Positions 7,443-27,894 are shown, counted from the stretch's first letter. The stretch is 40,983 nt of DNA from Planctomycetia bacterium (GCA_009919445.1 RGBY01000001.1:1-40983); one strand, 5' to 3'. Numbers and translations: made by a program. Notes: generated by a model not told the origin, from the sequence alone.

Positions 7443-7459
7443 GAAAAAGCCCGCATTTC

Positions 7460-7511: not shown

Positions 7512-7641
7512 GCGTGCAATCCTTCCTTTCGGTCTCTTTTCCTGTTCCCGTCCAGGTCATTCGGCCTGCCTGCCGGTCTTTCTCTGTGCCCGTGCAAGTC
7601 TGTCAGCGTCCTTTATCTGCTGGGCCAGTCTTGCGGTGGCA

Positions 7642-10600: not shown

Positions 10601-11385
10601 ATCGCAAACTCAACAGCATGAAGCGGGGTGATGAACTCCGTCCTGGCGTGCTGCAGATGGTCAAGGTTTATGTGGCTGCCAAGCGGGTTATCTCCGTCGG
10701 TGACAAGATGGCTGGCCGCCATGGAAACAAGGGCGTGATCGCCAAGATCCTTCCCAAGGAGGACATGCCCTTCTTGGCCGATGGCACTCCCGTGCAGATC
10801 ATGCTCAACCCGCTCGGCGTGCCGAGCCGTATGAATGTTGGCCAGATTCTTGAAACCCATCTCGGATGGGCCGGCAAGATGCTCGGCTTCCAGGCCGTTA
10901 CGCCGGTCTTCGATGGGGCTAGCGAAGAAGAGATCAATGCTGTTCTAGCTGACGCTGGCCTTCCTAAGCACGGAAAGGCCCAGCTGTTTGATGGTCGTAC
11001 TGGTGAGGCCCTCGAGCAGGAGACCACCGTTGGCTACATCTACATGCTCAAGCTGCATCATCTTGTCGACGACAAGGTTCATGCCCGCTCGACCGGCCCG
11101 TATTCACTGATCACCCAGCAACCGCTTGGCGGCAAGGCTCGGTTTGGTGGCCAGCGGTTCGGCGAGATGGAAGTCTGGGCACTGGAAGCCTATGGCGCAG
11201 CATACATCCTGCAGGAACTGCTGACCGTCAAGAGTGACGACGTCGAAGGACGTACCAAAATCTATGAGAGCATGGTCAAGGGTGAAAACACACTTGAGGC
11301 TGGCACCCCGGCCAGTTTTGACGTGCTCACCAATGAGATCCGAGGGCTTGCCCTCAACATGCAACTGGAGAAACGGCGGGTCTAA
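7642..11385 (+). CDS. rpoB: DNA-directed RNA polymerase subunit beta
   Basis: Start chosen at ATG 7642 ([18 protein letters not shown]...), which aligns with the conserved RpoB N-terminus. Conserved blocks include [59 protein letters not shown]. Confidence 0.97.
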
Positions 11386-11494
11386 CTCAGCCCGTTCACC
11401 AAACCAAACCACCAGATGGGCCCGACCCTACGTTCACGAGCCCTCGCCTTTCGCAGCCTTCAAACACAACTGACTATCCCCAGGAGACCTCTCC

Positions 11495-14400
11495 GTGAGC
11501 ATCGGTGAAGCCACCTACGATCGCGTCAATGACTACTCGGCCGTCAAGATCAGCCTGGCCAGGCCGCATGATATTCGCAGCTGGTCATTCGGCGAGGTAA
11601 AGAAGCCCGAAACGATCAACTACCGCACCTACCGTCCTGAGAAGGACGGCCTGATGTGCGAGAAGATCTTTGGGCCAGAAAAGGACTGGGAATGTTCCTG
11701 CGGCAAGTACCGCGGGATGAAGTACAAGGGCATGATCTGCGACCGCTGCGGTGTCAAAGTGACGCACAGCCGCGTTCGCCGGAAGCGGATGGGCCACATT
11801 GAGCTCGCTGCGCCTGTGGTGCACATCTGGTTCTTCAAGGCGATGCCGAGCCGGCTTGGGGCTCTGCTAGACATGAAGACAACCAGCCTGGAGAAAGTCA
11901 TCTACTTCCAGGACTATGTCGTTCTGGACCCCAAGGACACTCCCCTCAAGAAGCAGCAACTTCTCTCCGAGGAAGAGTGCCGGCAGGCACGCGACGAGTA
12001 TGGCGAGACGGCCTTTGAGGCCGAGATGGGCGCCGATGCCGTTCGCAAACTCTTGCTCGACCTCGATCTGGTCGAACTGTCGAAGGTGTTGCGAGAAGAA
12101 CTGGCCACCACCGGCTCAAAGCAGAAGAAGAAAGACCTCGTCAATCGACTGAAGATTGTGGAGGCCATTCGTGACAGCGAAAACAAGCCCGAGTGGATGG
12201 TCCTCGATGTCATCCCCGTCATCCCCCCCGACTTGCGTCCACTGGTCATGCTCGACAGTGGCAATTTTGCCACCAGCGACCTCAATGACCTCTACCGCCG
12301 CATCATCAACCGGAACAACCGGCTCAAGAAGCTTGTTGACCTGAATGCCCCCGAGGTCATCATCCGCAATGAAAAGCGAATGTTGCAGCAGTCGGTTGAC
12401 GCTCTCTTCGACAACAATCGCTGCAAGCGGCCCGTCCTGGCTTCCAGCAACCGACCGCTCAAGAGCCTGACGGACATGATCAAGGGCAAGCAGGGCCGGT
12501 TTCGTGAGAACCTGCTCGGCAAACGAGTCGATTACTCTGCCCGTAGCGTCATTGTCGTTGGCCCAACCCTGCGGCTCCATCAGTGTGGCCTGCCAAAGAA
12601 GATCGCGCTGGAACTCTATCAGCCGTTCATCATTCGCCGGCTGAAGGACCTGGGCCATGCCGACACCATCAAGTCAGCGAAGAAGATGCTGGAGAGGAAG
12701 GACGCCGAGGTCTGGGACATCCTGGAAGAGGTGATCCACAACCATCCTGTTCTTCTGAACCGGGCCCCGACCCTGCACCGCATGGGCATTCAGGCATTTG
12801 AGCCAGTCCTGGTCGAAGGCCATGCCATCAAACTTCACCCGCTGGTCTGCAAGGGCTTCAACGCCGACTTTGACGGTGACCAGATGGCGGTCCACCTGCC
12901 GCTGTCAATTGAGGCTCAGGTCGAAGCACACACGCTGATGCTGGCGACCAACAACATCTTTAGCCCCGCCAACGGTGCGCCGATCATCTCGCCGTCACAG
13001 GACGTCGTGATGGGCTGCTATTACCTGACGATGGCAATGCCCGGCCGTGGTGGCGAAGGGATGGTCTTCCGGAGTTTTGAAGAGGTCGAACTGGCTCACT
13101 CGTTCGGCAAGGTCGACACCCACGCCATGATTCGAGTGAAACTGCCGGCCAACCGACGCCTCAAGACCGAAAATGATACTGACAGCCAGCCGGGTGCCGT
13201 GATCGAAACCACAGCCGGCCGCGTGCTGTTCAACTCGATCCTTCCAGAAGGGATGCTGTTTTACAACATTCCTATGCGTTCCAGTGAACTGGCTCGGGTC
13301 ATTTCGGACTGCTACCAGTTGCTCGGCCGGAGGAACACGATTGACCTTCTCGACGACATGAACCGAGTTGGTTTCAGCTGGAGTACCCGCAGTGGTCTCT
13401 CCTTTGCCACCGACGACCTGATTACGCCGGAAAGCAAACTGAAGATCATCGGTGACGCCGAGAAGTCAGTGATGAAGATCCTCAATCTCTACCAACGCGG
13501 CGTTATCACCGACGGCGAACGCTACAACCAGGTGCTGGACACCTGGACCCACGCCCGCGAGCAGATCACCAAGGAGATGATGGCCGAACTGGAGCAGGAC
13601 ACCGATGCTCGGGAGGTTCGCTACAGCGGCTACGTCAATCCAATCTTCCTCATGGCCCACTCCGGTGCCCGTGGTGGCGTTGAACAGATTCGTCAGTTGG
13701 CTGGCATGCGTGGCTTGATGGCCAAGCCATCCGGCAAGATTATTGAAACGCCCATCAAGGCAAACTTCCGTGAAGGCCTTACGGTGCTGGAATACTTCAG
13801 CTCCACCCACGGTGCCCGAAAGGGTCTGGCTGACACCGCTCTGAAGACGGCCGACTCTGGCTACCTCACCAGAAAACTCGCCGACGTTGCCCAAAACGTT
13901 GTTGTGACCATGCACGACTGTGGCACCACACAGGGCATTGAAAAGACCGTGATCTATCGTGGTGAAAAGGTCGAGGTCAATCTGGCCGATAGCATTCGGG
14001 GACGGGTGAGTCGCACCAACATTGCCAATCCCATCACCGACGAGGTGGTGGTGCACGAGGATGACCTCATCACACCCAAGACCGCGCGGGACATCGAGGC
14101 TTTGGGCCTCGAAAAGATCCAGGTCCGCAGCGCGCTGACCTGCGAAGCCCCCCTGGGCGTTTGCCGTCTCTGCTACGGAATGGACCTTTCCACCGGCTCG
14201 CTGGTCGAAGAGGGTATGGCTGTCGGGATCATTGCGGCCCAGAGTATTGGCGAGCCAGGCACCCAGTTGACGATGCGGACATTCCACATCGGTGGTGTCG
14301 GTCAGCGTGCCGTTGAGGAAAACGAGTATCGCGCCAAGCGGCCTGGTACCGCGAAATTCACCCGTATCCGAACTGTTCAGAATGAAGAGGGTGAACTGGT

Positions 14401-15871
14401 CGTCTTGGCTCGAAATGGTGAAATCGCCATCTTGAACGAGAAGGGCCAGGAAGCTGACAAATTTGAGATTCCGGCTGGTGCCATCCTCAAGGTGGCTGAA
14501 AACGAGAAGGTCAAACAGGGGACCGTTCTTGTCCAGTGGGATCCCCACTCGATTCCGATTCTCTCGGAAGTGCCGGGGAAGGTTCGCTACGAAGACGTGG
14601 TTGAGGGCGAAACCCTGCGAATCGAGAAGGACCCCAGTGGTCACATCCGCCGTATGATCATGGAGCACAAGGGTGTCTACCACCCGCAGGTTGTGCTCGA
14701 GGATGAGTCCGGCAAGATTCTCGATTTCTACTACCTTCCCGAGAAGGCCTACATCGAGGTTGCACCCGGCGAGACCGTGAAGGCCGGGCACATCCTTGCG
14801 AAGACACCGCGGGAAGCCGGCGGCACGCAGGACATCACTGGTGGTCTGCCCCGCGTCACTGAAATCTTTGAGGCCCGGAAGCCAAAGGATCCCGCGATCA
14901 TGGCCGAGATTGATGGCAAGGTCGAGGTCAGTGGCGAGAAGCGACGTGGCAAGCGAACGATCATCGTCCGCAACGAAACGGGCGTCGAGCGAGAGCATCT
15001 CATCACTCATGGCAAACACATGCGTGTACACGCTGGTGACATCGTTCGCGCCGGTGAAGCCCTCGTTGACGGCCCACTGGTCCCGCACGACATCCTGCGG
15101 ATCTCTGGTGAAGAAGAAGTGCAGCGGTACCTGGTTCGCGAGATTCAGAATGTCTATCGCAGCCAGCGTGTTGAAATTGATGACAAGCACATCGAGATCA
15201 TCGTTTCCCAAATGCTCCGCAAGGTGAAAATCGACACCGTCGGTGACACCTCCTTGCTGCCGGGCAGCATGCTCGACAAGCATGACTTCCGTCAGGCGAA
15301 TGAGCGTCTCGCTGGCTGCCTGCGGATTACTGATAAGGGCGACAGTGAATTTGAGGTGGGCAGCATTGTTCCCAAGGATGTGCTCACTCAGACCAACGAA
15401 ACGGTGGAGGCCCTCGGCGGCACACCCGCCAAGGGCACCAAGCCGAAATCGGCCACGGCCAGCACGCAGTTGTTGGGAATCACCAAGGCAAGTGTGCAGA
15501 GTTCGAGCTTCATCTCGGCTGCCAGTTTCCAAGAGACGACCAAGGTACTCACCGAGGCTGCCCTGGCAGGCCGCGTCGACAACCTGGTTGGGCTCAAGGA
15601 GAATGTGATCTTGGGCCACCTCATTCCGGCTGGCACAGGATTCAACACCTTCCAGTCTTCAGAAGTTCGGGTTCGGCCAGAGGCGCTCGAAGCCCTCCGC
15701 ATCGATCGTGAAGATCTTCTGGCTCGCGACTTCCCGCTCCTTGAGGCTGCCGGCCCAAGCGACGAGGAGCTGGCTGCTGGGGCAGAGAGTCTGACCGATG
15801 GTGGCCAGCCGACCCTCGACATTTTTGCAGAATCATCTGAAACCTCAGAAAATCCCTCTGAAGGGCTTTGA
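11495..15871 (+). CDS. rpoC: DNA-directed RNA polymerase subunit beta prime
   Basis: GTG start. Zn-binding CSCGKY...CDRCGV. Catalytic [12 protein letters not shown]. 1458 aa with an acidic C-terminal tail. Confidence 0.98.
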
Positions 15872-15968
15872 GCCCCGGGCACCTGCCTCTCGGTCGGTGC
15901 TCCCCTAGGGTTTTCCTGAGTGCCAGACGATGGCTGCTTGAGGGCCTTTTGCTGCAGAGAGTTTCTGG

Positions 15969-16958
15969 ATGACCGGTGTTGAGACGACCAGCGGCCGGCA
16001 GGCAGTCCTGCCCAACCTGAGTGAGCCGCCTCGTTTGGCACCGTCTGAGGATGTCTCAGAGGCAGCCATTCGCCTCTCTCGCAAACAGCCTGCCAACCAA
16101 ACTGCGGCAGCTATCTTGGGAAACCGGCTGACAACCGTCTGGGGCCTCTGCCAAGAAGCCGGAGACCCTCTGGCTGATCCCGAGGTCGTCCATCGCCTGC
16201 GGGTAGCCACGCGTCGCTCTTTAGCCGCCTTCAGCCTGTTGAAGCCACTTCTGCCTCGCAAACAGCATCGCCGATTCGTGCGGTGGCTCCGCAACCTCCG
16301 TCGTGCAGCGGGTACAGCCCGTGATCTCGATGTCATTGTCGACCGGCTGCAGCATCACCTGCCACCGGTCGCCGATCCAGAGAGCACCCTGCTGAAACTC
16401 CTGAATCTGCTGGGGGACTATCAGGTTGCCAGCCGGGTACCGCTCCAAAAATGGCACCATCACCTGCTCAGGAGCAACTGGGCCCAACGGGTCGACGAGC
16501 TAACACGCGGTCTCTCCACCAAACAAAAATGTGAACGCTATGGCTCGTTTGTCAGCCGACGGCTGACACGCTGCGGGAAACGGTTCTTTGCAACCGCCGG
16601 TCACTCCGCAAAACGAGCCGACGACTTGCACCAGATTCGTATTGAAGGGAAGCGGCTGCGGTATAGCCTTGAGCTTGTTCCCACGCAGAGCCGGAAATCT
16701 GCTTATGACCGCTGCCTGCGTTCACTCAAAAAGATGCAGGTTGCCTTGGGTGACTTTACTGATCACACCGCAGCGGCAGGGTGCTTCGAGCGACTGCGTG
16801 AAGAGGGCCTGCCAGCTGAACTTATGCCTCTCGTAGAAGAACTCCGTCGAGAGGAGCATCTTCTGGCCGAATTAGCCCAGCAACGGTTCACCATCTGGTG
16901 GAATAACAAACGCCGACGACGCCTGCGTCGCCGCTTCTCCAAGACTCTCAAGCGATAG
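15969..16958 (+). CDS. CHAD domain-containing protein
   Basis: Helical, Arg-rich repeats typical of CHAD: VHRLRVATRRSLAAFSLLKPLL...RNLRRAAGTARDLDV and LHQIRIEGKRLRYSLEL. Confidence 0.7.
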   Translation: MTGVETTSGRQAVLPNLSEPPRLAPSEDVSEAAIRLSRKQPANQTAAAILGNRLTTVWGLCQEAGDPLADPEVVHRLRVATRRSLAAFSLLKPLLPRKQHRRFVRWLRNLRRAAGTARDLDVIVDRLQHHLPPVADPESTLLKLLNLLGDYQVASRVPLQKWHHHLLRSNWAQRVDELTRGLSTKQKCERYGSFVSRRLTRCGKRFFATAGHSAKRADDLHQIRIEGKRLRYSLELVPTQSRKSAYDRCLRSLKKMQVALGDFTDHTAAAGCFERLREEGLPAELMPLVEELRREEHLLAELAQQRFTIWWNNKRRRRLRRRFSKTLKR

Positions 16959-16960
16959 CC

Positions 16961-18184
16961 ATGCCCAAGATCAGCCCCCCTTCAGCAGACACTCCCCCAG
17001 CTTTCGCAAGCAGCCTGCTGGCGTCAACGCCCGCTCTCATCGTGCTGGCGATCATCGCAGCTGGACTCCTCTGGTGGGGCTGCCAGATCGCCCTCATGCC
17101 AGCAGCCTCACCTGCCGTGCAGGCATCGGGGCGACCGGCCCTGCCAGTTTCAAGTGCGCGGCAGCAGCCAACTTCTTCCACCAATCCAGAGAGTGGCTTT
17201 CTGCCGACGAACCCGGCTTCTTCACCGCCGCCACGCCCGGCTCCCGAAGGCATGGTCTGGGTGCCGGGCGGAGAATTCTCGATCGGTTGCAGCGACCCCC
17301 GTGGTATCCCTCACGGGGGCACCAACCCAATGGCCGATGCCCGCCCCATTCATCGAGTCACGGTCAAGAGTTTCTGGATGGATGCGACTGAGGTGACCAA
17401 CCGGCAATTTGAAGCCTTCGTGACAGCCACTCACTATGTGACTGTCGCCGAAATTCCACCACGTCCTGAAGACTTCCCGGGAGCCCCCGCCGAAAATCTG
17501 GTGGCTGGCTCCATTGTCTTCACTCCCCCCGACCGCCCTGTTGGGCTCGGAGACCATCTGCAATGGTGGCGGTATGTACCCGGCGCGAACTGGCGACACC
17601 CGTTCGGGCCAGCATCATCAATTCAAGGGCACGAGGATGAACCGGTCGTGCACATTGCCTTTCCTGATGCTCAGGCATATGCCGACTGGGCCGGCAAACG
17701 CCTTCCGACCGAAGCCGAGTGGGAATTTGCGGCACGCGGTGGCCAGGCAGGTTTAGTCTATCCCTGGGGAAATCAGTTCCGTCCCGAAGGCCGCTGGATG
17801 GCAAATACCTGGCAAGGACGGTTTCCATCCGAGAATACAGCCGCTGATGGATTTACCGGCATTGCGCCCGTCCGGCAATTCCCCCCCAACGACTACGGCC
17901 TCTACGACATGTCGGGTAACGTCTGGGAGTGGTGTGCTGACTGGTATCGTCCTGACACCTACCAGAGGCAGCAACTGGGTGAACTGCCCACAGAGAATCC
18001 AACCGGCCCCGACACCAGTTTTGATCCGCAGGAACCAGGGATTCCTAAACGGGTCCAGCGGGGAGGGTCATTCCTCTGCACCGACCAGTACTGCTCCCGC
18101 TATATCGTTGGTACCCGCGGAAAAGGCGACGTCACCAGCGGCTGCAACCACATTGGCTTCCGCTGCGTGCAGGACGTGCACTAG
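16961..18184 (+). CDS. formylglycine-generating enzyme family protein (SUMF1/FGE-sulfatase domain), membrane-anchored
   Basis: N-terminal TM plus Pro-rich linker. FGE blocks GGEFSIGC, WMDATEVTNRQFEAFV, GNVWEWCADWY, RVQRGGSFLCTDQYCSRY. Start is 2 nt after the CHAD stop. Confidence 0.85.
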   Translation: MPKISPPSADTPPAFASSLLASTPALIVLAIIAAGLLWWGCQIALMPAASPAVQASGRPALPVSSARQQPTSSTNPESGFLPTNPASSPPPRPAPEGMVWVPGGEFSIGCSDPRGIPHGGTNPMADARPIHRVTVKSFWMDATEVTNRQFEAFVTATHYVTVAEIPPRPEDFPGAPAENLVAGSIVFTPPDRPVGLGDHLQWWRYVPGANWRHPFGPASSIQGHEDEPVVHIAFPDAQAYADWAGKRLPTEAEWEFAARGGQAGLVYPWGNQFRPEGRWMANTWQGRFPSENTAADGFTGIAPVRQFPPNDYGLYDMSGNVWEWCADWYRPDTYQRQQLGELPTENPTGPDTSFDPQEPGIPKRVQRGGSFLCTDQYCSRYIVGTRGKGDVTSGCNHIGFRCVQDVH

Positions 18185-18209
18185 CCTTCGCAGGCACGTC
18201 CGGACCAGC

Positions 18210-19967
18210 TTAGGACCGCTCTTTTTTTCGCAGCAATTTCCGCAGGCTCGCAAGTGTTCGGGTATTGGCTACGTCCTTTGGCTCAAGCCCCGCCCGCCGG
18301 GCCTGCAGCACACCACACCGCATGACATCGAGTCCCTCGGTGGAATGGGCATCGGTTGAGATGACCATCTGGACACCAGCCTGACGGGCCGCCGCAGCCA
18401 GGGTGTCATCCAGATCGAGCCGCCAAGGATTGGCGTTTATCTCGAGGCAGGTGCCGGTAGCTGCTGCCGCATCAATGACCTGCTGCATATCAACATCATA
18501 GGCCGGGCGACGATTGATCAGTCGTCCTGTTGGATGACCGATACAACTGACGGCAGGATGATGAATGGCTTCAAGAATTCGGCCTGTAATCCGGTCGCGT
18601 GCCTGCTTCTGCCCATAGTGCAGACTCGCCACGACCCAGTCTGCTTCAGCCAACACATCCTCTGGAAGGTCGAGCCCCCCTTTCTCCAGCATGTCGACCT
18701 CAATCCCCTTGAGCACGACCAGCGGGGACTTGCCTTCAGCAGCCAAGGACTCATTGAGCCGGTCAATCGACCGCCATTGCCGCCGCAGCCGTTTCTCATC
18801 GAGGCCATGAGCCATCGTCACCCGCTTACTGTGGTCGGTAATGGCAATGTAAGACAGCCCTCGCTCAATGGCCGCCTGTGCCATCTCCGTCAGGGTTGCT
18901 TCGCCATCAGTGGCAGTGGTGTGCATATGCAGATCACCGCGAATATCGGCAAGTGTGACCAACTGGGGGAGGCTCCCCGCTTCGGCCCGCTCAATCTCTC
19001 CCCGTCCCTCACGAAGTTCCGGTGGAATCCAGAGCAGCCCGATCGACTGGTACACCTCTTCTTCGGTTCGCCCCGCCAATGGCTTGGCTGCCTGGTCATC
19101 AATTCGCGTCACGCCATATTCATTGATGGTAAGCCCCTGCTCTCGGGCTCGACTGCGGACCCGCACATTGTGTTCTTTTGATCCCGTAAAATATTGCCAG
19201 GCAGCCCCAAACGACGCCGCAGTGACTACCCTGAGGTCAATCTGGATTTGCTGTGGCCCGCGAATGCTTGTCTTCGTCTCACCCCGAAGCAGTGTTTCAC
19301 CAGCTGCGTTCCAAGCCAGCAGATGATCCATCACCTCGTTTGGCTTCTTGCTCTGCGCCAGAATGTCGATGTCGCCGACTGTTTCACGGCCACGCCTCCA
19401 ACTGCCAGCAGCTTCGACCCGCTCCGCTGCAGGACAGTCTCGCATCCACGCGAGGAGTTGCTGCACGATGACGTCAGCTTCTTGCCAGAGCAGTCGACTG
19501 TGTGCCGGATCTTGGGCAAAGGCCAGGTTGGCCAGAATCATGGCCTCTGTCTTTTCGCCAAACCCCTTGAGGTCACGCACGCGGCCTGCCCGGCAGGCGT
19601 CGCCAAGGTCGTCAAGCGAGGTAAGGCCGAGCGAATCGACCAAGATCTTCACCTTCTTGGGGCCAAGACCTGGAACCCGCATGAGTTCAAATGCGACCTG
19701 CGGGACTTCCTGCTCAAGCTGCTCAAGTAGTGGGAGTCGGCCACCGTCAAGCAGGGCCTCAATCTTTATCGCCAGATCCTTCCCAATTCCCTCAAGATCA
19801 GTGAGCGAACGGCCTGCTGCCTCACGGATGGTTGCCAGTGACTCGACCGTTCCTTTCACCAGCCGAGCCGCATTACGGTAAGCCCGTATGCGGAAAACAT
19901 TCCCCCCCTGATACTCAAGAAGATCGGCAACATGATCAAAGAGCGAGGCGATCTCAGCGTTGGTCAC
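18210..19967 (-). CDS. polX: DNA polymerase/3'-5' exonuclease PolX (Pol beta-like domain plus PHP domain)
   Basis: HhH motifs (GIGKDLAIKI, VPGLGPKKVK), nucleotidyltransferase GSWRRGRETVGDIDIL, PHP GDLHMHTTATDG...ITDHS. The in-frame GTG at 19967 gives MTNAEIASLF... and lies 8 nt after the upstream stop. The ORF-track ATG at 20105 would overlap the upstream gene by ~130 nt. Confidence 0.85.
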   Translation of the reverse strand: MTNAEIASLFDHVADLLEYQGGNVFRIRAYRNAARLVKGTVESLATIREAAGRSLTDLEGIGKDLAIKIEALLDGGRLPLLEQLEQEVPQVAFELMRVPGLGPKKVKILVDSLGLTSLDDLGDACRAGRVRDLKGFGEKTEAMILANLAFAQDPAHSRLLWQEADVIVQQLLAWMRDCPAAERVEAAGSWRRGRETVGDIDILAQSKKPNEVMDHLLAWNAAGETLLRGETKTSIRGPQQIQIDLRVVTAASFGAAWQYFTGSKEHNVRVRSRAREQGLTINEYGVTRIDDQAAKPLAGRTEEEVYQSIGLLWIPPELREGRGEIERAEAGSLPQLVTLADIRGDLHMHTTATDGEATLTEMAQAAIERGLSYIAITDHSKRVTMAHGLDEKRLRRQWRSIDRLNESLAAEGKSPLVVLKGIEVDMLEKGGLDLPEDVLAEADWVVASLHYGQKQARDRITGRILEAIHHPAVSCIGHPTGRLINRRPAYDVDMQQVIDAAAATGTCLEINANPWRLDLDDTLAAAARQAGVQMVISTDAHSTEGLDVMRCGVLQARRAGLEPKDVANTRTLASLRKLLRKKERS

Positions 19968-19975
19968 AGCGGCAA

Positions 19976-21151
19976 TTACTGGGCATGGGTAGGGAGTGCT
20001 GCCGTCGGATACGTCGGCTGCCAGCCCTGAGCATACGGTCCAGTAGGAGCCTTCGTGAATGCCGGCTGCCATCCAGCAGGTGAGATGCTGCGTGACGGCT
20101 GCCATGAGGTGGTGTGACTGGTCGGCTCCAAAAGCTTGGGAAATGCCCGAGTCGCACTCGTCGGCCCGTTTCCAGGAACCACCGGCATATCGCTATTGCC
20201 CTGCAAGGGCCTGCCATAGGATTGCTGGCTGCCACCAACTGGGCCACTGCTCACTGGAGGAATCGGCCGCAGGGCTGGGGCAGGGGCCGTCTGCCCGTTG
20301 GCATCGTCACGGGTCGCTGAGACACCGGCTGCGGGCGGCTCAGTGGCCTGCTGAGCCGCTGGCGACTGATTGGCTGGCTGCTCGGGACGCCGGGAGAGTT
20401 CTGGAATCGGCTTCAGTGACGGCGCCGGGCTGAGTGCTGGCGGACTGGTGGGCTGAGGCTGCACCGGAGCCTGCGGCATCATCGCGGTGCCACTTTGTGG
20501 CACGATCTGCTGTTGGTAGGTGCTCCCGGTGGCCGGCGGCAGAACAGGCTGTTGGGTCGGTACGGACGGAGGGACAGTCGCCCCGGCAGCGCCCCAGGCC
20601 TGTGGGGTTGTCTGAGATGGTGCCGCGAAAGGACTGGCGGCTGTTCCTGCCGGGCCCGGGACGGTACCAGCGTATGCCGGAGCAGTCGCTCCCTGTTGCA
20701 CCTGAACGTACTTCGTGGTGTAGACAGCCCGGTATTGAGTGACCGGCACACTTACCGGCTTCTGCACGTAACTGGTAACCGGCTGCATGCATTCCACGGC
20801 ACAGCCTGTGCAAGGATCAATTTCACACGATGACTGATAACAGGTTACGGGGACGCACTGATACTGCGTTCGATAGGTTGTCTCCGGGACGTAACTAACC
20901 TGCTGAACAGGGACCATCACCGGTTGGGCAGGAGCCGGCGGTGTCACCGCGACTGGAGCAACTGGAGCGATTGGCGTGACCGGAGGAGGAGCCGGCACTG
21001 GTGCCACTGCATAGGCAGGGGCAGCCTTTTTAAAGCAACCACAACCAGAGAGCAGACCTGACAGGCAGCACTGCGCCTGGGCAACGGCTGGATGAATAAA
21101 CAGAGCACCAGCTAGCAGAATGACATTGATTGAAAGACGCCGCGAATGCAT
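19976..21151 (-). CDS. secreted Cys/Pro/Ala/Gln-rich protein, possibly a YTV-like planctomycete envelope protein
   Basis: aaggagag SD before the ATG. Signal peptide MHSRRLSINVILLAGALFIHPAVAQA. Cys clusters CCLSGLLSGCGC and CVPVTCYQSSCEIDPCTGCAVEC. Y-rich motifs TTYRTQY and TQYRAVYTTKYV. Long P/A/Q/T low-complexity tail. Confidence 0.7.
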   Translation of the reverse strand: MHSRRLSINVILLAGALFIHPAVAQAQCCLSGLLSGCGCFKKAAPAYAVAPVPAPPPVTPIAPVAPVAVTPPAPAQPVMVPVQQVSYVPETTYRTQYQCVPVTCYQSSCEIDPCTGCAVECMQPVTSYVQKPVSVPVTQYRAVYTTKYVQVQQGATAPAYAGTVPGPAGTAASPFAAPSQTTPQAWGAAGATVPPSVPTQQPVLPPATGSTYQQQIVPQSGTAMMPQAPVQPQPTSPPALSPAPSLKPIPELSRRPEQPANQSPAAQQATEPPAAGVSATRDDANGQTAPAPALRPIPPVSSGPVGGSQQSYGRPLQGNSDMPVVPGNGPTSATRAFPKLLEPTSHTTSWQPSRSISPAGWQPAFTKAPTGPYAQGWQPTYPTAALPTHAQ

Positions 21152-21381
21152 CGCACTCTCCTTGAGTCAGGTTCGACGGGTTGGGCAAACGTGCCCGATT
21201 CTCCCGTCAGCACTCCAACACTAGGTTGCGTTGCCACCACTTTGCTTGAGAAAAACATCTTTTTTGTTCGTGAATTTTCTCTTCCTGCCTGCCACATTCG
21301 TTATGTCCGCTACAACCCCACTACAATCTCGTGGACAGGCCTCGTTTGATGAGAATTTCCTCAAAAAAAACTCGAGCCAGT

Positions 21382-22005
21382 TCATGCGGCCACCTGCTCT
21401 CGCACCCATCTTTCATAGCGGTCATAGAGCTCGAAAAAGGCTTCCCGCGTATTTCCGCCATGCCGACTGAAGATTGCACGAAGCAATGCGTCGTCAAATT
21501 CAACCGGCGGGCTAGGCGACTGCCTGAGGAGGTCAGCCACAAGCTCCACAAACTGCTGCTCCTCTGAACGCGTCTCCCAGAGAACAGGCCAATCTCCACA
21601 GCCGCAGGGCTGGTGCGTCGTGACAACGAGTCGCCCCGGCCGCTGACTCGCCAGTCTTGCCAGCAGCCCCCGCGGCCAGGCCAGAACCTCCCAGCTGTCG
21701 ATGCAGAGCAACTCATCAGCCGCTCGTCTCCCCAGCACCGTTGCCACCGCCCGGGGCCAGTCAGCCAGCGAACGCAATCGCAGGAAGCGGGTCGGCCACC
21801 CACGTGTCGCGGCTTCCACCAGGAGATGGCGAAGCAGTGTTGATTTCCCACTGCCATGGGGGCCGCTGATGATTCCCCGCCCGCCCAGATGCTCCAGCCG
21901 GTCGAGTACGGCCGCCGGTGAATGGGTTCGTGACCGCCAAGCCAGCTGGCCCGGCCTGGTGAAACGTGTTGCAAACGGGTTGTGAGGGGACCGTGCCACA
22001 ATCAT
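21382..22005 (-). CDS. minimal P-loop NTPase (207 aa), family not recognised
   Basis: Walker A GPHGSGKST. Walker-B-like LLCIDSWE. Possible sensor VVTTH. ATGA overlap with the upstream gene (22002-22005). Confidence 0.75.
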   Translation of the reverse strand: MIVARSPHNPFATRFTRPGQLAWRSRTHSPAAVLDRLEHLGGRGIISGPHGSGKSTLLRHLLVEAATRGWPTRFLRLRSLADWPRAVATVLGRRAADELLCIDSWEVLAWPRGLLARLASQRPGRLVVTTHQPCGCGDWPVLWETRSEEQQFVELVADLLRQSPSPPVEFDDALLRAIFSRHGGNTREAFFELYDRYERWVREQVAA

Positions 22006-22463
22006 GAGACCGCTGGCTCTGGAGGCCGCGCCACCGGCACATCGCCCAGAAAAAACACATGCTCAGAGACAAAGTCTCGACCACCAACAAAAAAGAGTCG
22101 CACCCGCACGCACCAGCGGATCTTGACGATGACTCCTTCGTAAGACAGAGGGCTGGGCGGAAGCTTTCCTGAAATAACACCGACCAGAGGCTCAGCTGAC
22201 GCAGGCTCAGGTTCCACCCGTTCAAGCGGCTTCCTTTCAAAGAGGATCACCCCAAGATCCTCTTCCCCCTTCCCCTCGGTGTACCAGGCAACTGACTGTT
22301 CAATGGCCGTGACGGCATGACGATCGACTCCGACCACTCGGTACCGAGCCCGAATGTTGTCTCCCGGCGCATAGTTGCCATCGTCAACGTTGAAATCAAC
22401 CGTCACCTGAGGGCTCAGTGGTGGGCTACTGGATGGTGCCAGGCCGGCGGCCGTTCGCATCAT
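22002..22463 (-). CDS. small soluble beta-rich protein, paralogous to the C-terminal domain of the upstream membrane protein (arrestin/Ig-like sandwich suspected)
   Basis: 153 aa. ATGA overlaps at both ends. Motif PPSPLSYEGVIVKIRWCVRVRL parallels PPRAMHSFHSTHNTLSWQLVLRG in the neighbouring gene. Confidence 0.65.
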   Translation of the reverse strand: MMRTAAGLAPSSSPPLSPQVTVDFNVDDGNYAPGDNIRARYRVVGVDRHAVTAIEQSVAWYTEGKGEEDLGVILFERKPLERVEPEPASAEPLVGVISGKLPPSPLSYEGVIVKIRWCVRVRLFFVGGRDFVSEHVFFLGDVPVARPPEPAVS

Positions 22464-23812
22464 GAGGCAGCCCCCTGTCCAGAGTGCCAGGAAACAGGTG
22501 CAGCCCCCATGGCCGCAGTGGTATCAGACGGATAGATGACCAGTGGGAAGACTCGCTTGAGTTCTGGCCAATGATCTGGCTGGCCGCGCAAAACTAGCTG
22601 CCAACTCAGTGTATTGTGGGTTGAGTGAAAGGAGTGCATGGCTCGCGGTGGCACCCGAAACTGCAGTTCGGCTTCAAAGGGAGTTCCAGGAAGTGGTTCG
22701 ACTCGATTCCAACATCGAATGACTTCACTACAAACAACCTGCCGCTCCGTGCGGACATCAGTCCCCTGACGAAATGTTGCCTGCTCTTCCAACTCAAGGC
22801 GGAGCTCGAGCCGCCGAAAGGCCACCGAGCCAGCCTGAGAAAGCAGCACCTCATACGAACCACCCGGACGCAACGGATGATCTGAAATTTCGAGATGCGA
22901 GGGGCCGATCGCCGTGACCCGAAGAAGCCGGCGGAAAAACAGCCCGATCGCAAGCAATCCCACCAGCGTGAACGGGGCCAACAAAAGTAAGAGCCACCAG
23001 TCAGCGCGGCCTCCCGCCACATCGAAACCAGCACCAATTGCCAGAACGATCACCACGGCATTCCAGAGCCCGGCAAACAATCCGGAACCGAGCAGAGTCC
23101 ACGCCTCCGGGCTTTCAGTCGGTAGCCGAAACCGGAGGACAGTCCCCGGCGAATTGACCAGATTGTCGCAGGCGGGAATGGCCGGAAACCCACTGGCCTC
23201 TGGCATGCCACGCGTCAACCGCTTCAATAAGCCCCAGACTTCAGCCGCTTGCCGCTCCTCTGACCGCCCCCAGCCGCCAGCGGCATGGAGCAATCCACTG
23301 CTCCCAAAGGCGACCAGAGCCCCGGGCAAAAGCAGCGTTAACAACCAGAGCCACCAGTTGTAGCCCCGCTTGAGCACCACCGTCGTGACATTGTCAGGGT
23401 CATACCAACACGACACCGGTCGATTGAGCTGCCACTGTGCAAGCTGGGCAATTGCAGTCTCCCGCTGCGATGAGGTCTCGGCCAGCCTACCGGAACTCCA
23501 AGACCGCACGAGTTTGCCCCGAGCCTGATACTCCACCAGGATGGCTGGTCGCCATGACTGCCGGCGATTTCCAAAAATATCGGTCGTCGTATGACGAGCC
23601 AGCCCTTTGCCGATTAAACGACCGCTGGCCTCAACAAACTGGTTATTGATCCGCCACTCCGAGACCGCCACGCCGGTGAGCATCAGCCCTCCGATGACGA
23701 GACCAGCAGTCAACAAGACCAGGTAGTAAATCGCCTCTCCAAGCGAGCCCCAAGCCGGCAGCCCGGTTCGGCGTTCACCGCGTTTCTTGCTGAAAAAACT
23801 GGGCAGCCTCAC
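22460..23812 (-). CDS. four-TM membrane protein with DUF3592-like extracytoplasmic domain and C-terminal beta-rich cytoplasmic domain
   Basis: GTG start with gggagaag SD. TM1 ~27-49. DUF3592-like block (ASGRLIGKG...WRPAILVEYQARG...VSCWYDPDNVTTVVLKRG). TM2 ~153-175, TM3/TM4 ~238-295, then a ~130-aa beta-rich domain. Confidence 0.75.
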   Translation of the reverse strand: MRLPSFFSKKRGERRTGLPAWGSLGEAIYYLVLLTAGLVIGGLMLTGVAVSEWRINNQFVEASGRLIGKGLARHTTTDIFGNRRQSWRPAILVEYQARGKLVRSWSSGRLAETSSQRETAIAQLAQWQLNRPVSCWYDPDNVTTVVLKRGYNWWLWLLTLLLPGALVAFGSSGLLHAAGGWGRSEERQAAEVWGLLKRLTRGMPEASGFPAIPACDNLVNSPGTVLRFRLPTESPEAWTLLGSGLFAGLWNAVVIVLAIGAGFDVAGGRADWWLLLLLAPFTLVGLLAIGLFFRRLLRVTAIGPSHLEISDHPLRPGGSYEVLLSQAGSVAFRRLELRLELEEQATFRQGTDVRTERQVVCSEVIRCWNRVEPLPGTPFEAELQFRVPPRAMHSFHSTHNTLSWQLVLRGQPDHWPELKRVFPLVIYPSDTTAAMGAAPVSWHSGQGAAS

Positions 23813-23866
23813 GCGTGCTTCTCCCGGCGGACCGGCCCCTTGCTGCGGCCCAACCGGCCGCCCGGC

Positions 23867-24169
23867 CTACCGCAGTTTCGACAGATCCTCTGTGCGGGTC
23901 ACCACAATGTCGTCAGCCGGTGCATGCTTCCGAAAAAAGCCGATCTTTTCCAGCGACTTGTAGACCTCTTCAAGGGTCTTCTCACCGAAGTTGGAGATGC
24001 TCAAGAGATCGGCACGGGTACAGTTCAGCAGGTCATGAACTGTGAAGATGCCTTTTTCCTCAAGGCAGTTGGTGGTTCGCACTGACAGGCCAATTTCAGC
24101 AGTGCTCATCTCAAGCTTTTCAGCAAGCTCGTCGGACTGGGTAAGGCTCTTGTATGGAATGCGTGGCAT
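23867..24169 (-). CDS. stand-alone RNA polymerase alpha-subunit C-terminal-domain (alpha-CTD)-like protein, 100 aa
   Basis: LSVRTTNCLEEKGIFTVHDLLNCTRADLLSISNFGEKTLEEVYKSLEKIG matches the RpoA alpha-CTD helix-hairpin-helix core. ATG at 24169 is preceded by gggaggg SD. The ORF-track start at 24247 is less likely. Confidence 0.8.
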   Translation of the reverse strand: MPRIPYKSLTQSDELAEKLEMSTAEIGLSVRTTNCLEEKGIFTVHDLLNCTRADLLSISNFGEKTLEEVYKSLEKIGFFRKHAPADDIVVTRTEDLSKLR

Positions 24170-24439
24170 GGGGTCCCTCCCGTGCAATGTGGGTGGTGGT
24201 ATGACTCGGGCCACCCGCACCAGCGTCGGGTGAAGCCCTCGGGCCATTGCAACGGCCTACCTGCCGTCGCGGTCCAGCAGGCTGGAACTGGTTTTCGTTC
24301 CACTGCTGGCATGTCAAAGGAATATAATCAATTTTGTCAGAATCCGACCACCTGCAGCCTGAGGAGAGGCCAGCAGCCTTGCGTTTCTGTCAGATCGGAA
24401 CCTGTCCTTTCCTTTCTCCCAAAGCGAACGCCTAGCACC

Positions 24440-26875
24440 GTGCGGCGACTTTCTCTCGACTCACTCAACCCGAGCCAGCGGCAAGCGGCAACCCACGTCG
24501 AGGGCCCGTTGCTCGTGCTTGCAGGCCCCGGCAGCGGAAAAACCCGCGTTGTGACCCACCGGATTGCCCATCTCATCACGCAAGGCATTCCTGCCCACCA
24601 AATCGTTGCCCTCACCTTTACCAACAAGGCAGCCGAGGAAATGCGCCGGCGGGTCACCGATCTGGTTGGTCCCCAGCCTGTGGAGATGGGAACCTTCCAT
24701 CGGTTCGCTGCCCGGCTGCTCAGGGTTCACGCCCGCCTGGTCGGCCTGACCAGCGACTATTCGATTCTCGACACTGATGACTCGCAGTCCGTACTCAAAC
24801 GAGCTGCCAAAAAACTTGGGCTGTCCCTGAAGCACACCCCCATCGGCCGACTTGCCGGAACAATCAGTCGGGCGAAAAACGACCTGGTCACACCAGAAAC
24901 CTTTGAGCCACGTTGGGGCCGGCCAGCCGACGAGATCGTTGCCAAACTCTGGCCGGTCTACCAAGAGATGCTGCTGGAATCCAACTCCGTTGACTTCGAC
25001 GACATTCTCATTCACATCGCGCGGCTGCTTCTTGATAACCCAGACCTCCGACGCCAGCTTGATGCCCGCTATCGCTGGCTCCTTGTCGATGAATATCAAG
25101 ACACCAACGCCGTGCAGTACTGCATCTTGCGGGGGCTGTCTCTCGACTATCAGAATCTGGCGGTGACAGGAGACCCTGACCAGGCCATCTATGGCTGGAG
25201 GGGGGCGAGCATCCGCAACATTCTCGAGTTCGAGCGCGACTATCCCGCCGCCGCCGTGGTGACCCTCGAGCAGAACTACCGCAGCACGGCCAATATTCTG
25301 GGCACCGCCGATCGGGTCATTGCCAATAACAGTCGTCGCAAGCCAAAACAGCTTCAGACCGATGCAGGGGCTGGCTCCCAGGTTCGCATCGTCCTTGACA
25401 GTAGCAGTCATGACGAGGCTGAACGGATCGCCACCGAAATTGCTGATGCCATTACCAGCGGCATCCGGCAGCCACGTGACTTCTGCATCTTGTTTCGCAC
25501 CAATGCTCTGTCCCGTTCGCTCGAAGTCGCCCTGCGGAACCGCCAGGTTCCCTACCAGCTGCTGCGGGGACTGGAGTTCTTCAAACGCCGCGAGGTTCGC
25601 GATATTGTTGCCTGGCTGCGGCTGCTGAAGAATCCTCGTGATGACGAAGCCCTGCTGCGAATCGTCAATGTCCCACCTCGAGGAATCGGCAAGCAGTCAC
25701 TCGATCGGCTGGCGGCCTGGGCAGAACAGCAGCAACTCTCACGACTCGAGGCCACCCGGCAGGCGGCTGCTGTCCCCGGCTTGTCCCGCCGAGCCATCCG
25801 GGCTTATGAACAGTTTGGTGATCTTGTCAACCAACTCGAGCAGGTGCACCAGCGGGCTGAGGGGGCGGTAGCCCCTCTGGTTGAAGCCATTCTCGACCGA
25901 ACCGGCTACCGCGAACTTCTGGCTGCCGAAAAGGATGAAGAAGGCGATGAGCGACTGGCCAACGTCGAAGAACTGGTGACCGCTGCCCGTCAGGTTGACG
26001 AATCCTTCGAGGCCGTCCTGCCTGACGACGACCCGCTTGGCCAGTTTCTTGAGCAGACTGCACTGGTTGCCGACACGGACGTCTGGGACCCGTCGGGAAA
26101 TCAGGTTTCCCTGATGACCTTTCACGCCTGCAAAGGGCTTGAGTTTCCGGTTGTCTACATGGTTGCGCTGGAAGATGGCATTTTGCCGCACGAGCGAAGC
26201 CTCGATCAGGACGACCAACTTGAGGAGGAACGCCGTCTTGTGTTCGTCGGCATCACTCGGGGAGAACAAGAGGTTCATGCGAGTGCGGCTCGCATCCGCG
26301 ACTATCGGGGAAGCCGCCGGATCGCAGCACCGAGCATATTCCTCACTGAAATGATTGGTGCCGAAACCCTGCTCACGGGCCCTGAAGCACCAACACTCAG
26401 TTCGCTGGGCCACGAGGAGGACAGTGACTGGTCGCCGCGAGAAGACGATCCATTTGCCGACTACTTCTCCTCAGGTCCAGACGATGAATTCCCCGGCGTC
26501 TCGGACCAGCCGGCAGACACCATGCCCCTGCAGCAAGAGCGAGCTGACGGACTGGTTCTCGAACTCGACTCAGAGCCTGCTGAGCCTGCCGTGAAACCGC
26601 CGGCCAAACAGTCCCGCTCTCGCGGTGATCTCACCAGCCTGGCCAAACTCCGTGAATCACCTGCGCTTCGTGCTGCCAGTGAACTTGGAAGCGGACGCCC
26701 TCGAGTCGCTGACTTTCACGTCGGGCAGCGGGTCCGCCATGCTGAGTACGGCGAGGGCGTGCTGGAACGCATCAGTGGCAACGGGCCACGAGCCGTCGCT
26801 GCTGTCCGTTTTACGAATGCCAGCCGCACCCGCAGTTTTGTGCTGGCCCACGGCGGCCTTGAACCGATCGGCTGA
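24440..26875 (+). CDS. ATP-dependent DNA helicase, UvrD/PcrA/Rep family (SF1A) with C-terminal Tudor-like domain
   Basis: Motifs LAGPGSGKT, TFTNKAAEEM, VDEYQDTN, GDPDQAIYGWRGA, QNYRS, TFHACKGLEFPVV, VGITRGE. The C-terminal FHVGQRVRHAEYGEGVLERI resembles the UvrD/PcrA Tudor domain. Start is GTG 24440 (MRRLSLDSLNPSQRQA) or ATG 24311. Neither has a clear SD. Confidence 0.9.
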   Translation: MRRLSLDSLNPSQRQAATHVEGPLLVLAGPGSGKTRVVTHRIAHLITQGIPAHQIVALTFTNKAAEEMRRRVTDLVGPQPVEMGTFHRFAARLLRVHARLVGLTSDYSILDTDDSQSVLKRAAKKLGLSLKHTPIGRLAGTISRAKNDLVTPETFEPRWGRPADEIVAKLWPVYQEMLLESNSVDFDDILIHIARLLLDNPDLRRQLDARYRWLLVDEYQDTNAVQYCILRGLSLDYQNLAVTGDPDQAIYGWRGASIRNILEFERDYPAAAVVTLEQNYRSTANILGTADRVIANNSRRKPKQLQTDAGAGSQVRIVLDSSSHDEAERIATEIADAITSGIRQPRDFCILFRTNALSRSLEVALRNRQVPYQLLRGLEFFKRREVRDIVAWLRLLKNPRDDEALLRIVNVPPRGIGKQSLDRLAAWAEQQQLSRLEATRQAAAVPGLSRRAIRAYEQFGDLVNQLEQVHQRAEGAVAPLVEAILDRTGYRELLAAEKDEEGDERLANVEELVTAARQVDESFEAVLPDDDPLGQFLEQTALVADTDVWDPSGNQVSLMTFHACKGLEFPVVYMVALEDGILPHERSLDQDDQLEEERRLVFVGITRGEQEVHASAARIRDYRGSRRIAAPSIFLTEMIGAETLLTGPEAPTLSSLGHEEDSDWSPREDDPFADYFSSGPDDEFPGVSDQPADTMPLQQERADGLVLELDSEPAEPAVKPPAKQSRSRGDLTSLAKLRESPALRAASELGSGRPRVADFHVGQRVRHAEYGEGVLERISGNGPRAVAAVRFTNASRTRSFVLAHGGLEPIG

Positions 26876-26898
26876 TCACCCCCAGCCGACCCGCGGCC

Positions 26899-27894
26899 TC
26901 AGCTCGTGACGGCCGCCACAGCCTCGCTAATCAGTTTTCCGGTTCCAGCAGCAAGCCACCGCCAGCCGAGGAGCTGCAGGGTGAAAGCAACCAGCACGTC
27001 GACCATGGTCAACCGGCGGGCGTGGATACCTGTACGGCCTATAGTGCGACGGCAAATGCTGGCTCCACCGCAGCGGCAGCATGAGAGGAAGAGCCCGATG
27101 AGGCTAACCGTCATGACCGCCTGCCAGCCACAAAGACCACCGACCAACGCCAGCCCGCCAGCCAGAAATGGTCCGGCATAGCCTGCAGCACGCAACAGGC
27201 TGCCAAGCAGCCAGCCCGCCAGCAGACCAAGCAGGCTTGTCAGCCCAGCTGCTTGACCAGGAGAAAGTGAGCCGAGAGCCCCCTCCAGCACCACTGGCGG
27301 AACCGCCACGGCGGGCTGCAGCCAAGGCCACAGCAGGGACAGCACCGGCAGGGTCAGTCCCACAAGAACAGACCAGCGTCGGGGCAGACGCTGCTGATCG
27401 TATTCCAGCAGGGCCCACGCCAACAGCGTCGCCAGACCAGTCACATGGAGCAGGCAGATGGCCAAAAGTCGACCATTCGGATGAAACAGGAGCTCATCAA
27501 CTCCCCGCCACCAGCGGCCCTGGGCAACCTCGTTCCCAAGTGGCAGGGTGTATCCGCCAGAGAGAATTTCGACTGCTGCCACCGACCCAATCAAAACGGC
27601 TGCAACGGCTTCGACAAATGGATACCGAACGGGAATCGGCACCAGGCAGTCACGACACCGCCCCTGCAAAAGAAGCCAGCCGAGAACTGGCAGGTTGTCC
27701 CGTGGACGGATCGCCTGCCCACAGGCTGGACAGCGAGAACCACCGAAAACAACGGACATGCCCAACGGCACCCGGTGAGCAACAACATTCAGAAAACTCC
27801 CGATATTGCCACCGACCACAAAGAAAAACACCACCGCCGCCACTTCTGCAAGCGACTGACCGAACGATTCGACTGTGAATGCTTCCCAGGGCAT
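26899..27894 (-). CDS. prepilin peptidase (A24)-like membrane protein, probably catalytically degenerate
   Basis: N-terminal PilD-type domain GSFLNVVAHRVP...SRCPACGQAIRPRDNLPVLGWLLLQGRCRDCLVPIPVRYPFVE. Polytopic C-terminal part contains no GxGD motif anywhere. Confidence 0.7.
   Translation of the reverse strand: MPWEAFTVESFGQSLAEVAAVVFFFVVGGNIGSFLNVVAHRVPLGMSVVFGGSRCPACGQAIRPRDNLPVLGWLLLQGRCRDCLVPIPVRYPFVEAVAAVLIGSVAAVEILSGGYTLPLGNEVAQGRWWRGVDELLFHPNGRLLAICLLHVTGLATLLAWALLEYDQQRLPRRWSVLVGLTLPVLSLLWPWLQPAVAVPPVVLEGALGSLSPGQAAGLTSLLGLLAGWLLGSLLRAAGYAGPFLAGGLALVGGLCGWQAVMTVSLIGLFLSCCRCGGASICRRTIGRTGIHARRLTMVDVLVAFTLQLLGWRWLAAGTGKLISEAVAAVTS

Follow-up and report, generated by a model that had tools for sequence, protein, structure and literature searches.

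Arrestin-fold proteins are central membrane adaptors of eukaryotes, and the alpha- and beta-arrestins (ARRDC3 and TXNIP among them) and Vps26 are among the nearest known counterparts of the locus described here. In prokaryotes, Spo0M (PF07070) is the sole arrestin-clan family described in the literature consulted (Alvarez 2008, PMC2515105); interactions with proteins of cell division have been reported for it (PMC5325327), and its function, too, is poorly understood. The present locus lies within a stretch of 40,983 nt from a Planctomycetia bacterium (GCA_009919445.1 RGBY01000001.1:1-40983), the whole of which is referred to below as the window. It comprises three overlapping genes, encoding a membrane protein with four transmembrane (TM) helices that ends in a predicted arrestin-like beta sandwich (lobe A), a small soluble protein predicted to have the same fold (lobe B) and a mini P-loop nucleoside triphosphatase (NTPase). 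We propose, at what we judge to be an even chance, that this is a vertically inherited chromosomal core of three genes, coupled in translation, whose products build a two-lobed arrestin-like assembly, anchored in the membrane and equipped with a small nucleotide switch of its own. The parts of this proposal differ in strength: we hold the architecture of the module to be very probable and the pairing of lobes A and B to be rather probable, and we put forward only tentatively the action of the ATPase as a switch.

The module has in common with the arrestins and Vps26 the seven-strand sandwich predicted for both lobes, a P-x-S-[FY] motif before a conserved strand and a position at the cytoplasmic membrane face; in fused members, moreover, the lobes stand in tandem. 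It differs in that, in the window, each lobe has a polypeptide of its own, lobe A being covalently joined to a four-TM protein, and in having a dedicated P-loop NTPase, a bacterial host and no significant match to the Arrestin_N, Arrestin_C or Vps26 hidden Markov models (HMMs); nor are PPxY, clathrin or AP2 motifs or a receptor-kinase system known for it. The likeness to Spo0M lies in a bacterial, cytoplasmic, single arrestin-like lobe, and Spo0M is the top or near-top structural match of both lobes. Spo0M is, however, soluble, about 250 aa long and of different phyletic range, and is without a membrane-anchored partner lobe or coupled NTPase; its structure entry 5cl2 includes a second, non-arrestin domain. 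Searches of the literature on bacterial arrestins, on DUF3592 and on arrestins together with Planctomycetes or AAA+ found no description of the module, and an architecture that combines one lobe anchored in the membrane with a second, free one and a mini NTPase appears to be undescribed.

The three-gene core and its contexts

Four open reading frames (ORFs), all on the minus strand, were called between positions 21382 and 24169. The three that form the core, with their principal parts, are as follows (window coordinates; pLDDT, predicted local distance difference test).

22460-23812, minus strand: membrane protein gene, GTG start, 450 aa, four TM helices
23357-23674, minus strand: DUF3592 beta domain, residues 47-152 of the membrane protein; Pfam match, AlphaFold2 pLDDT 80-91
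23111-23275, minus strand: predicted cytoplasmic TM2-TM3 loop, residues 180-234; WG[KR]SEE and the near-invariant P.[IV]P.CD.[LM].NSPGT.L.[FY]RLP.ES
22523-22906, minus strand: predicted arrestin-like lobe A, residues 303-430, directly after TM4; seven-strand beta sandwich
22460-22463, minus strand: ATGA stop/start overlap of the membrane and lobe B genes, read from the sequence
22002-22463, minus strand: small protein gene (lobe B), 153 aa, soluble
22002-22005, minus strand: ATGA stop/start overlap of the lobe B and NTPase genes, read from the sequence
21382-22005, minus strand: P-loop NTPase gene, 207 aa

The fourth ORF encodes an orphan RNA polymerase alpha C-terminal domain (alpha-CTD), and a gap of 54 nt separates its stop (23867) from the GTG of the membrane gene (23812). 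A first-pass annotation of the window had described these four minus-strand genes, the 54-nt gap and the two ATGA overlaps, and the ORF calls and the sequence agree with it throughout. In related loci the 4-nt start/stop overlap between membrane and small protein genes recurs in 76 of 88, and that between small protein and NTPase genes in 46 of 88, the rest of the latter junctions measuring -7 to +12 nt except in L088 (+63 nt). Because 4-nt overlaps are kept in so many of the 88 related loci, the gene arrangement is not a product of chance, and the tight coupling that the annotation had read from the window alone is confirmed. In NCBI annotation the three proteins are named as hypothetical or as 'ATP-binding protein'.

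A pattern scan of GTDB species genomes yielded 350 stretches with a relative of the membrane protein, and the best 80, mostly metagenome-assembled genomes (MAGs) of Pirellulales, were examined. Both the small protein and the NTPase were present in all 78 evaluable loci among them, those whose sequence reaches far enough. The Pirellulales block consists of uvrD (divergent), the alpha-CTD gene, the genes for the membrane protein, small protein and NTPase, a gene for a secreted Cys/Pro-rich protein, and polX. The informative cases are loci with different flanks, and the triad was found in about six such contexts (loci L005, L087, L088, L089, L090, L091 and L092), as follows.

L005, Gemmata sp.: 352-aa membrane protein without DUF3592, 130-aa small protein and 195-aa NTPase; both junctions 4-nt overlaps
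L087: triad flanked by dnaB, a dksA-like gene, lspA and others
L088 and L089: triad with different downstream genes
L091: 308-aa core membrane protein, 134-aa small protein and 194-aa NTPase
L090 and L092: membrane and small protein genes fused

Co-occurrence in other genomes, a check that the first-pass annotation had suggested, is therefore documented for the triad in Pirellulales, in Gemmata and in further contexts. The same annotation had spoken of a four-gene module; its membrane, small and NTPase genes belong together in this way, but its alpha-CTD gene is absent from beside the triad in L087, L005 and L091 and separated from it in L090. The conserved core is one of three genes, and the alpha-CTD and secreted protein are lineage-specific companions.

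The families themselves are large. The membrane protein has 361 homologues, many of them about 53% identical over the full length, with relatives spanning about 50-85% identity, and its Pirellulales alignment shows 64% mean column identity and 84 invariant columns. Small-protein sequences form 1108 clusters at 90% identity, and an exhaustive profile search gave 777 representatives at 50% identity with E-values (E) of 1e-3 or less, 389 of them at 1e-10 or less. Five fusions of membrane and small proteins occur among the 150 best small-protein representatives. Three of these, P0403 (591 aa), P0495 (721 aa) and P0500 (506 aa), join lobe A to lobe B through a linker of 40-60 aa, and two, P0404 and P0494, are fusion fragments. 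P0500 (in L090) and P0403 (in L092) were confirmed on contigs, where the NTPase gene is next, with a 4-nt overlap. Fusions arise in at least three lineages. Behind the TM hairpin they place two arrestin-like lobes one after the other, an order that matches the canonical layout of bilobed arrestins. Apparent fusions of small protein and NTPase (P0543 and P0511) look like frameshift or truncation artefacts and were set aside.

Predicted structure of the encoded proteins

The AlphaFold2 models rest on alignments of 33-35 sequences. In the membrane-protein model, of mean pLDDT 71.8, the sandwich of lobe A covers residues 305-424 (pLDDT 74-91), and lobe B is modelled as a single 153-aa domain of seven strands (pLDDT 81.5, predicted template modelling score 0.73). 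Foldseek comparison of lobe A with the PDB gave the ARRDC3 N-lobe (4r7x, E 4e-8) and Spo0M (5cl2, E 1.4e-7), the E-values to ARRDC3, Spo0M, TXNIP and arrestin running from 4e-8 to 1e-5; for lobe B the best match was Spo0M (5cl2, E 4.7e-7), and ARRDC3, the TXNIP N domain and beta-arrestin were also found. The set of matches common to both lobes takes in the ARRDC3 N-lobe (4r7x, 4r7v), the TXNIP/VDUP-1 N domain (4gej, 4gei, 4gfx), Spo0M of B. subtilis (5cl2), visual and beta-arrestins, Vps26 and VPS26C, the Vps26 structure matched by lobe A being 6h7w. Foldseek probabilities to arrestin-clan structures are 1.00, with template modelling scores (TM-scores) of 0.5-0.7 normalized to single-lobe targets, and almost all of the top 25-30 matches of each lobe belong to the arrestin clan. 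The P-x-S-[FY]...W-x-[VL]-x-V-R motif also occupies the same strand position in both lobes. Both domains are thus arrestin-type by predicted fold, not by sequence membership. The first-pass annotation had suggested that they are arrestin/Vps26-like, which holds for the fold as compared by Foldseek but does not extend to membership of the clan by HMM. It had gone on to link the module to a lineage with complex endomembranes, and this part was not sustained: since bacterial Spo0M is structurally as close to the lobes as are the eukaryotic arrestins and Vps26, there is no specific tie to eukaryote-like endomembranes. Lobe B carries an invariant alternating basic stripe (K114, R116, R120, R122) and an invariant acidic hairpin tip (EGKGEED), and these would be solvent-exposed contact surfaces.

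The membrane protein is built, in order, of a basic N-tail, TM1, DUF3592, TM2, a loop, a TM3-TM4 hairpin and lobe A, with helices predicted by AlphaFold2 at residues 20-46 (TM1), 153-179 (TM2), 235-260 (TM3) and 272-302 (TM4). The N-tail has six Lys/Arg residues against one Asp/Glu, and R294, R295 and R298 are placed at the predicted cytoplasmic end of TM4. Because of these modelled helices and this distribution of charge, an N-in topology is supported, in which DUF3592 would be periplasmic and the C-terminal beta domain cytoplasmic; the annotation's placing of DUF3592 outside and the beta domain inside the cell is in accord with both. The TM2-TM3 loop contains the most conserved segment of the protein, residues 210-234 (majority frequency 0.86, with 10 of 25 positions invariant, including NSPGT and RLP.ES), yet it is modelled at low confidence (residues 183-233), the pLDDT falling below 50 at residues 200-233 despite the conservation, and is predicted to be disordered. 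We propose that loop 180-234 is a docking peptide.

The DUF3592 domain matches Pfam PF12158 at residues 81-151 (E 2.6e-7, 31.7 bits against a cut-off of 25.3), and its well-predicted beta part comprises residues 60-137, with TM helices on both sides. It is the least conserved folded region of the protein (0.63 in the Pirellulales alignment), and it is missing from the proteins of L005 and L091 and from P0403 (L092) and P0500 (L090), all of which retain the four TM helices, the loop and lobe A. DUF3592 is a variable and dispensable domain of the membrane-protein family. Other DUF3592 proteins share the HMM score above the gathering threshold and the two flanking TM helices, but they are typically small, two-TM proteins, whereas in the present family it has been added at the N-terminus of a four-TM protein with an arrestin-like lobe, and several members have lost it. 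No established function for DUF3592 was found in the literature; one mycobacterial protein with this domain has been predicted to assist the mannosyltransferase MptB as a cofactor (bioRxiv 10.64898/2026.07.15.738315). Residues 20-179 (23276-23755, minus strand), the TM-DUF3592-TM part, align in Foldseek with beta4 subunits of the BK (Slo1) channel (9czq_F and 6v22_E; E about 1e-6, TM-score about 0.5, about 200 aligned columns). A fold-level tie between DUF3592 and the BK beta subunits is possible on these models; it would concern the TM-beta domain-TM fold of the optional DUF3592 part only, as there is no significant sequence match (the CaKB HMM, PF03185, stays below its cut-off at E 0.098 and 12.8 bits against 25.1) and no channel partner is known for the module.

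Members of the NTPase family are about 195-270 aa long. Their Walker A motif, GPHGSGKS, has G48, P49, H50, G51, G53 and K54 invariant; a Walker B-like hhhhD(S/G)(W/Y)E follows, with D103 and E106 conserved, then, behind the following strand, a conserved VT.H (VTTH in the window) and, among the helices of the C-terminal part, an invariant R187 within GN.RE. A near-invariant N-terminal peptide, NPF[AS]TRF.RPG (residues 1-19; 21979-22005, minus strand), precedes the P-loop in every homologue and could be a docking peptide or resemble the 'box II' of AAA+ proteins. Among 41 members, 38 match AAA_16, 32 NACHT and 28 nSTAND5; family cut-offs were compared for the window NTPase, which falls below every one of them (AAA_16 31.7 against 32.6, nSTAND3 25.7 against 27.2 and NACHT 21.4 against 26.7 bits). 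Matches in a profile search of the PDB, ORC4 and RuvB included, are confined to the P-loop, and the NCBIfam Hda model matches weakly (4e-4). From its sequence we classify the protein as a minimal switch-type P-loop ATPase of the AAA+/STAND class, either of the two classes being meant. With AAA_16, NACHT, nSTAND and Hda-like NTPases it shares the Walker A motif, the Walker B-like hhhhDG.E, the conserved Thr/His behind the following strand and a helical C-terminal region that contains a conserved arginine; unlike them it is only about 200 aa long, without sensor repeats, effector domain or winged helix, and has the invariant NPF.TRF.RPG peptide as a unique feature. As the annotation had stated, neither the two beta-rich proteins nor the NTPase could be assigned by Pfam and NCBIfam scans to a characterized family, and the small protein of the window matched no model in either collection.

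Working model and competing explanations

We hypothesize that lobe B docks on the membrane-tethered lobe A at the inner face of the membrane, much as the two lobes, N and C, pair in an arrestin. The conserved loop (NSPGT..RLP.ES), the basic N-tail or both may serve as docking peptides for the lobes or the ATPase, strand addition being a plausible mode, and the K114/R116/R120/R122 stripe and EGKGEED tip of lobe B are candidate contact surfaces. ATP binding and hydrolysis by the NTPase would then assemble or reset the complex, or free a client. Where DUF3592 is present it may pass in a periplasmic or envelope cue, and in most Pirellulales the alpha-CTD-like protein could be an output or partner of the module. 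The most likely role is that of a housekeeping envelope-to-cytoplasm adaptor or signalling device, not one in phage defence. A bolder version, which we consider rather unlikely, is that this is a genuine prokaryotic two-lobe arrestin in a 'split' state, with one lobe tethered, one supplied in trans and a mini AAA+/STAND ATPase to drive it, the fused versions having the eukaryotic tandem layout. Were that so, the split arrestin would stand as the first arrestin-like membrane adaptor system from a bacterium; it would also serve as a living model for the origin of the two-lobe arrestin and Vps26 adaptors from ancestors with a single lobe.

Several observations weigh against an arrestin-like three-gene assembly. 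Seven-strand sandwiches can arise by convergence, and no HMM of the Arrestin clan (Pfam CL0135) scored above threshold for the membrane protein or the small-protein family: Arrestin_C reached E 0.083 and 13.6 bits (cut-off 27.7) against the membrane protein, and among 33 small-protein members three matched Arrestin_C (best 0.095) and one Arrestin_N (0.2), all below threshold. The Spo0M (PF07070) and Vps26 HMMs gave no match at E up to 10 among the same 33 members, nor is the Spo0M architecture found here, and profile searches of both beta families against PDB sequences returned nothing, the collagen adhesin and opsin hits lying above E 0.09. The two lobes are not significantly similar in sequence (BLASTP E 0.25, hhalign probability 1.6%), and with more diverse alignments hhalign (probability 3.7%, E 0.011) superposes only the motif region noted in the first-pass annotation, LP.SPLSY...W.VRVR upon P..AMHSF...W.LVVRG, so that the term 'paralogue' used there is apt at the level of fold but not of sequence. 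The NTPase gene is unlinked in Lignipirellula cremea (L004:7001-7597, complete genome CP036433.1), where the other two genes are not within 7 kb, and no NTPase gene adjoins that for the fused protein P0495. Finally, much of the co-occurrence count comes from one clade, and the 78-locus figure by itself is weak evidence for function, because the entire uvrD-polX neighbourhood is syntenic; it counts for less than the number of loci would suggest. The beta domains might be generic immunoglobulin (Ig)-like or E-set sandwiches unrelated to arrestins, and the operon a membrane complex such as a scaffold or chaperone for envelope enzymes. To the sub-threshold HMM scores and the non-significant alignment of the lobes, this explanation can add Foldseek matches of lobe B to a nanobody, alpha2-macroglobulin and a fibronectin type III (FnIII)-like domain of GH3, at about E 1e-4, and the precedent of the mycobacterial DUF3592 protein predicted to assist MptB (bioRxiv 10.64898/2026.07.15.738315). 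Those Ig-like and FnIII-like matches are nevertheless 100-1000 times poorer in E than the arrestin-clan ones that nearly fill the top 25-30 places, the only Pfam families to recur even weakly are Arrestin_C and Arrestin_N, the motif takes the same strand position in both lobes, the tandem fusions resemble the two-lobe arrestin layout, and the dispensability of DUF3592 makes a function centred on it unlikely. On balance we regard generic sandwiches as an unlikely explanation.

Other explanations start from the neighbours of the triad or from its NTPase. The membrane module could act as an anti-factor that holds the alpha-CTD-like protein and releases it on envelope signals, the freed protein competing with or mimicking the CTD of RNA polymerase alpha at UP-like DNA or activator sites. 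In favour of this, the alpha-CTD gene runs in the same direction as the triad, ends 54 nt before it, precedes it in every evaluable Pirellulales locus as well as in L088, L089 and L092, and encodes a protein that keeps the DNA-binding residues of RpoA; rpoB and rpoC are in the same window. We think such transcriptional control quite unlikely, the gene being absent from beside the triad in L087 and in L005 (Gemmata) and L091, and parted from it in L090 by an opposite-strand PQQ_2 gene; it always co-occurs with the divergent uvrD, even in L090, and may belong to the uvrD neighbourhood instead. An anti-phage or conflict system, with a STAND-like NTPase as the sensor of infection and the four-TM protein as an effector that disrupts membranes, would account for the weak matches of NTPase members to NACHT, nSTAND3, nSTAND5 and AAA_16 and for the presence of a membrane protein, as in many abortive-infection systems. 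Screening against PADLOC-DB 2.0 gave no match for the membrane and small proteins and weak generic ones for the NTPase (mad8 at 1.2e-4, mad3, PtuA); the alpha-CTD protein weakly matches the helix-hairpin-helix part of PglW (6.7e-5). Defence, which the annotation had entertained as a second possibility, is very unlikely, because of the core location of the module, its absence from collections of mobile elements and the lack of a significant match to a defence model. The uvrD-to-polX block is syntenic across 80 species-level genomes, conservation is very high (as the column identities above illustrate), the GC content of the module is uniform with that of its surroundings, and no nuclease, protease, TIR or other effector domain is encoded; no relatives were found in IMG/VR or in phage and plasmid collections, on which ground an origin in a mobile element was likewise rejected. 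Lastly, an Hda/DnaA-like mini AAA+ protein and a helix-hairpin-helix DNA-binding protein might tie chromosome transactions to the membrane as a replication or repair accessory. The weak Hda match and the appearance of ORC4 and RuvB among the PDB profile matches point this way, as do the uvrD and polX neighbours in most loci, dnaB within 6 kb in L087, dnaG-rpoD in L090 and a DEAD helicase gene adjoining P0495. The NTPase similarities are, however, restricted to the P-loop and below family cut-offs, the neighbours vary with context and are neither co-directional nor coupled with the triad, and L005 (Gemmata) and L091 are without replication or repair neighbours, all of which makes this role highly improbable.

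The membrane-anchored adaptor thus remains the explanation that we prefer, and the locus is of interest on several counts. Its three genes form a well-delimited system, one that joins an arrestin-like unit physically to the membrane and gives it an ATPase as partner. The free-lobe family, with its 777 clusters at 50% identity, is large, strongly conserved and completely unannotated, and the module as a whole, widely conserved and probably housekeeping in Pirellulales and Gemmata, is still uncharacterized. The ligands of bacterial arrestin folds and the evolution of two-lobe arrestins are here open to planctomycete genetics and biochemistry, and one DUF3592 architecture would gain its first functional context.

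Neighbouring genes and other observations

The window is a core housekeeping region with genes for nusG, rplA, rpoB, rpoC, a CHAD protein, an FGE-sulfatase-family protein, PolX/PHP, UvrD/PcrA and a prepilin peptidase. Features outside the triad are as follows.

3542-20105 and 24182-27894: housekeeping flanks of the module, core genes
7510-11385: rpoB
11495-15871: rpoC
18210-20105: PolX/PHP
19976-21151, minus strand: secreted Cys/Pro/Ala-rich protein, 391 aa, 230 nt downstream of the NTPase gene
21375-21391, minus strand: weak terminator-like hairpin and T run at the NTPase stop, from a consensus scan only; five-pair stem, tail CGAGTTTTTT
23867-24169, minus strand: orphan alpha-CTD gene (ORF 23867-24247, likely true start ATG 24169), about 100 aa, helix-hairpin-helix
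24182-26875: UvrD/PcrA, divergent from the module

The alpha-CTD protein matches Pfam RNA_pol_A_CTD (PF03118) at E 7.5e-19 (67.7 bits, cut-off 23.8). An alpha N-terminal domain was not found, TIGR02027 scoring 60 bits against a cut-off of 227.8 with only model positions 226-292 matched, and the start at ATG 24169 fits the N-termini of homologues, which have the form M..RIP. In E. coli alpha, residues R265, N268, C269, G296 and K298 form the DNA-binding '265 determinant'. Alignment with E. coli RpoA shows no variation at any of the five, and Thr takes the place of S299; the orphan alpha-CTD is probably a small DNA-binding protein. As to its position, the gene is a frequent but separable neighbour of the triad and is outside the universal core.

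The 391-aa secreted protein is Cys-rich and then Pro/Ala/Gln-rich, with repeated VP.T.YR and PVT.Y motifs and no Pfam match. A protein of this kind comes after the NTPase in every Pirellulales locus that could be evaluated, as well as in L087 (where the flanks are different; E 5e-7) and L092, and is not downstream in L088, L089, L005 or L091. In L. cremea (L004) the lone NTPase gene is followed by one for a protein of the same type, homology with which is not established. Given its absence in other contexts and the uncertain homology in L004, the secreted protein was not taken as a fifth member of the module; it is possibly an accessory partner.

The hairpin at 21375-21391 is a possible operon end. 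Sigma-70-like sites were not found in a promoter scan, whose consensus is uninformative for planctomycetes. Long ORFs in overlapping alternative frames (21321-22001 and 21761-22240, both minus strand, and others) have no homologue support and are treated as artefacts, typical at about 60% GC. Upstream of the triad in L005, on the opposite strand to it, is a gene for a 1207-aa protein combining a Ser/Thr kinase with Tubulin_2 (L005:239-3862, minus strand). Twelve of the MAG records (L025, L035, L039, L040, L045, L046, L050, L054, L063, L065, L070 and L082) are titled 'Candidatus Kuenenia' and two (L022 and L055) 'Chitinophagaceae'; all carry the Pirellulales-type uvrD-to-polX block, at 50-69% protein identity, and these labels are probably wrong.

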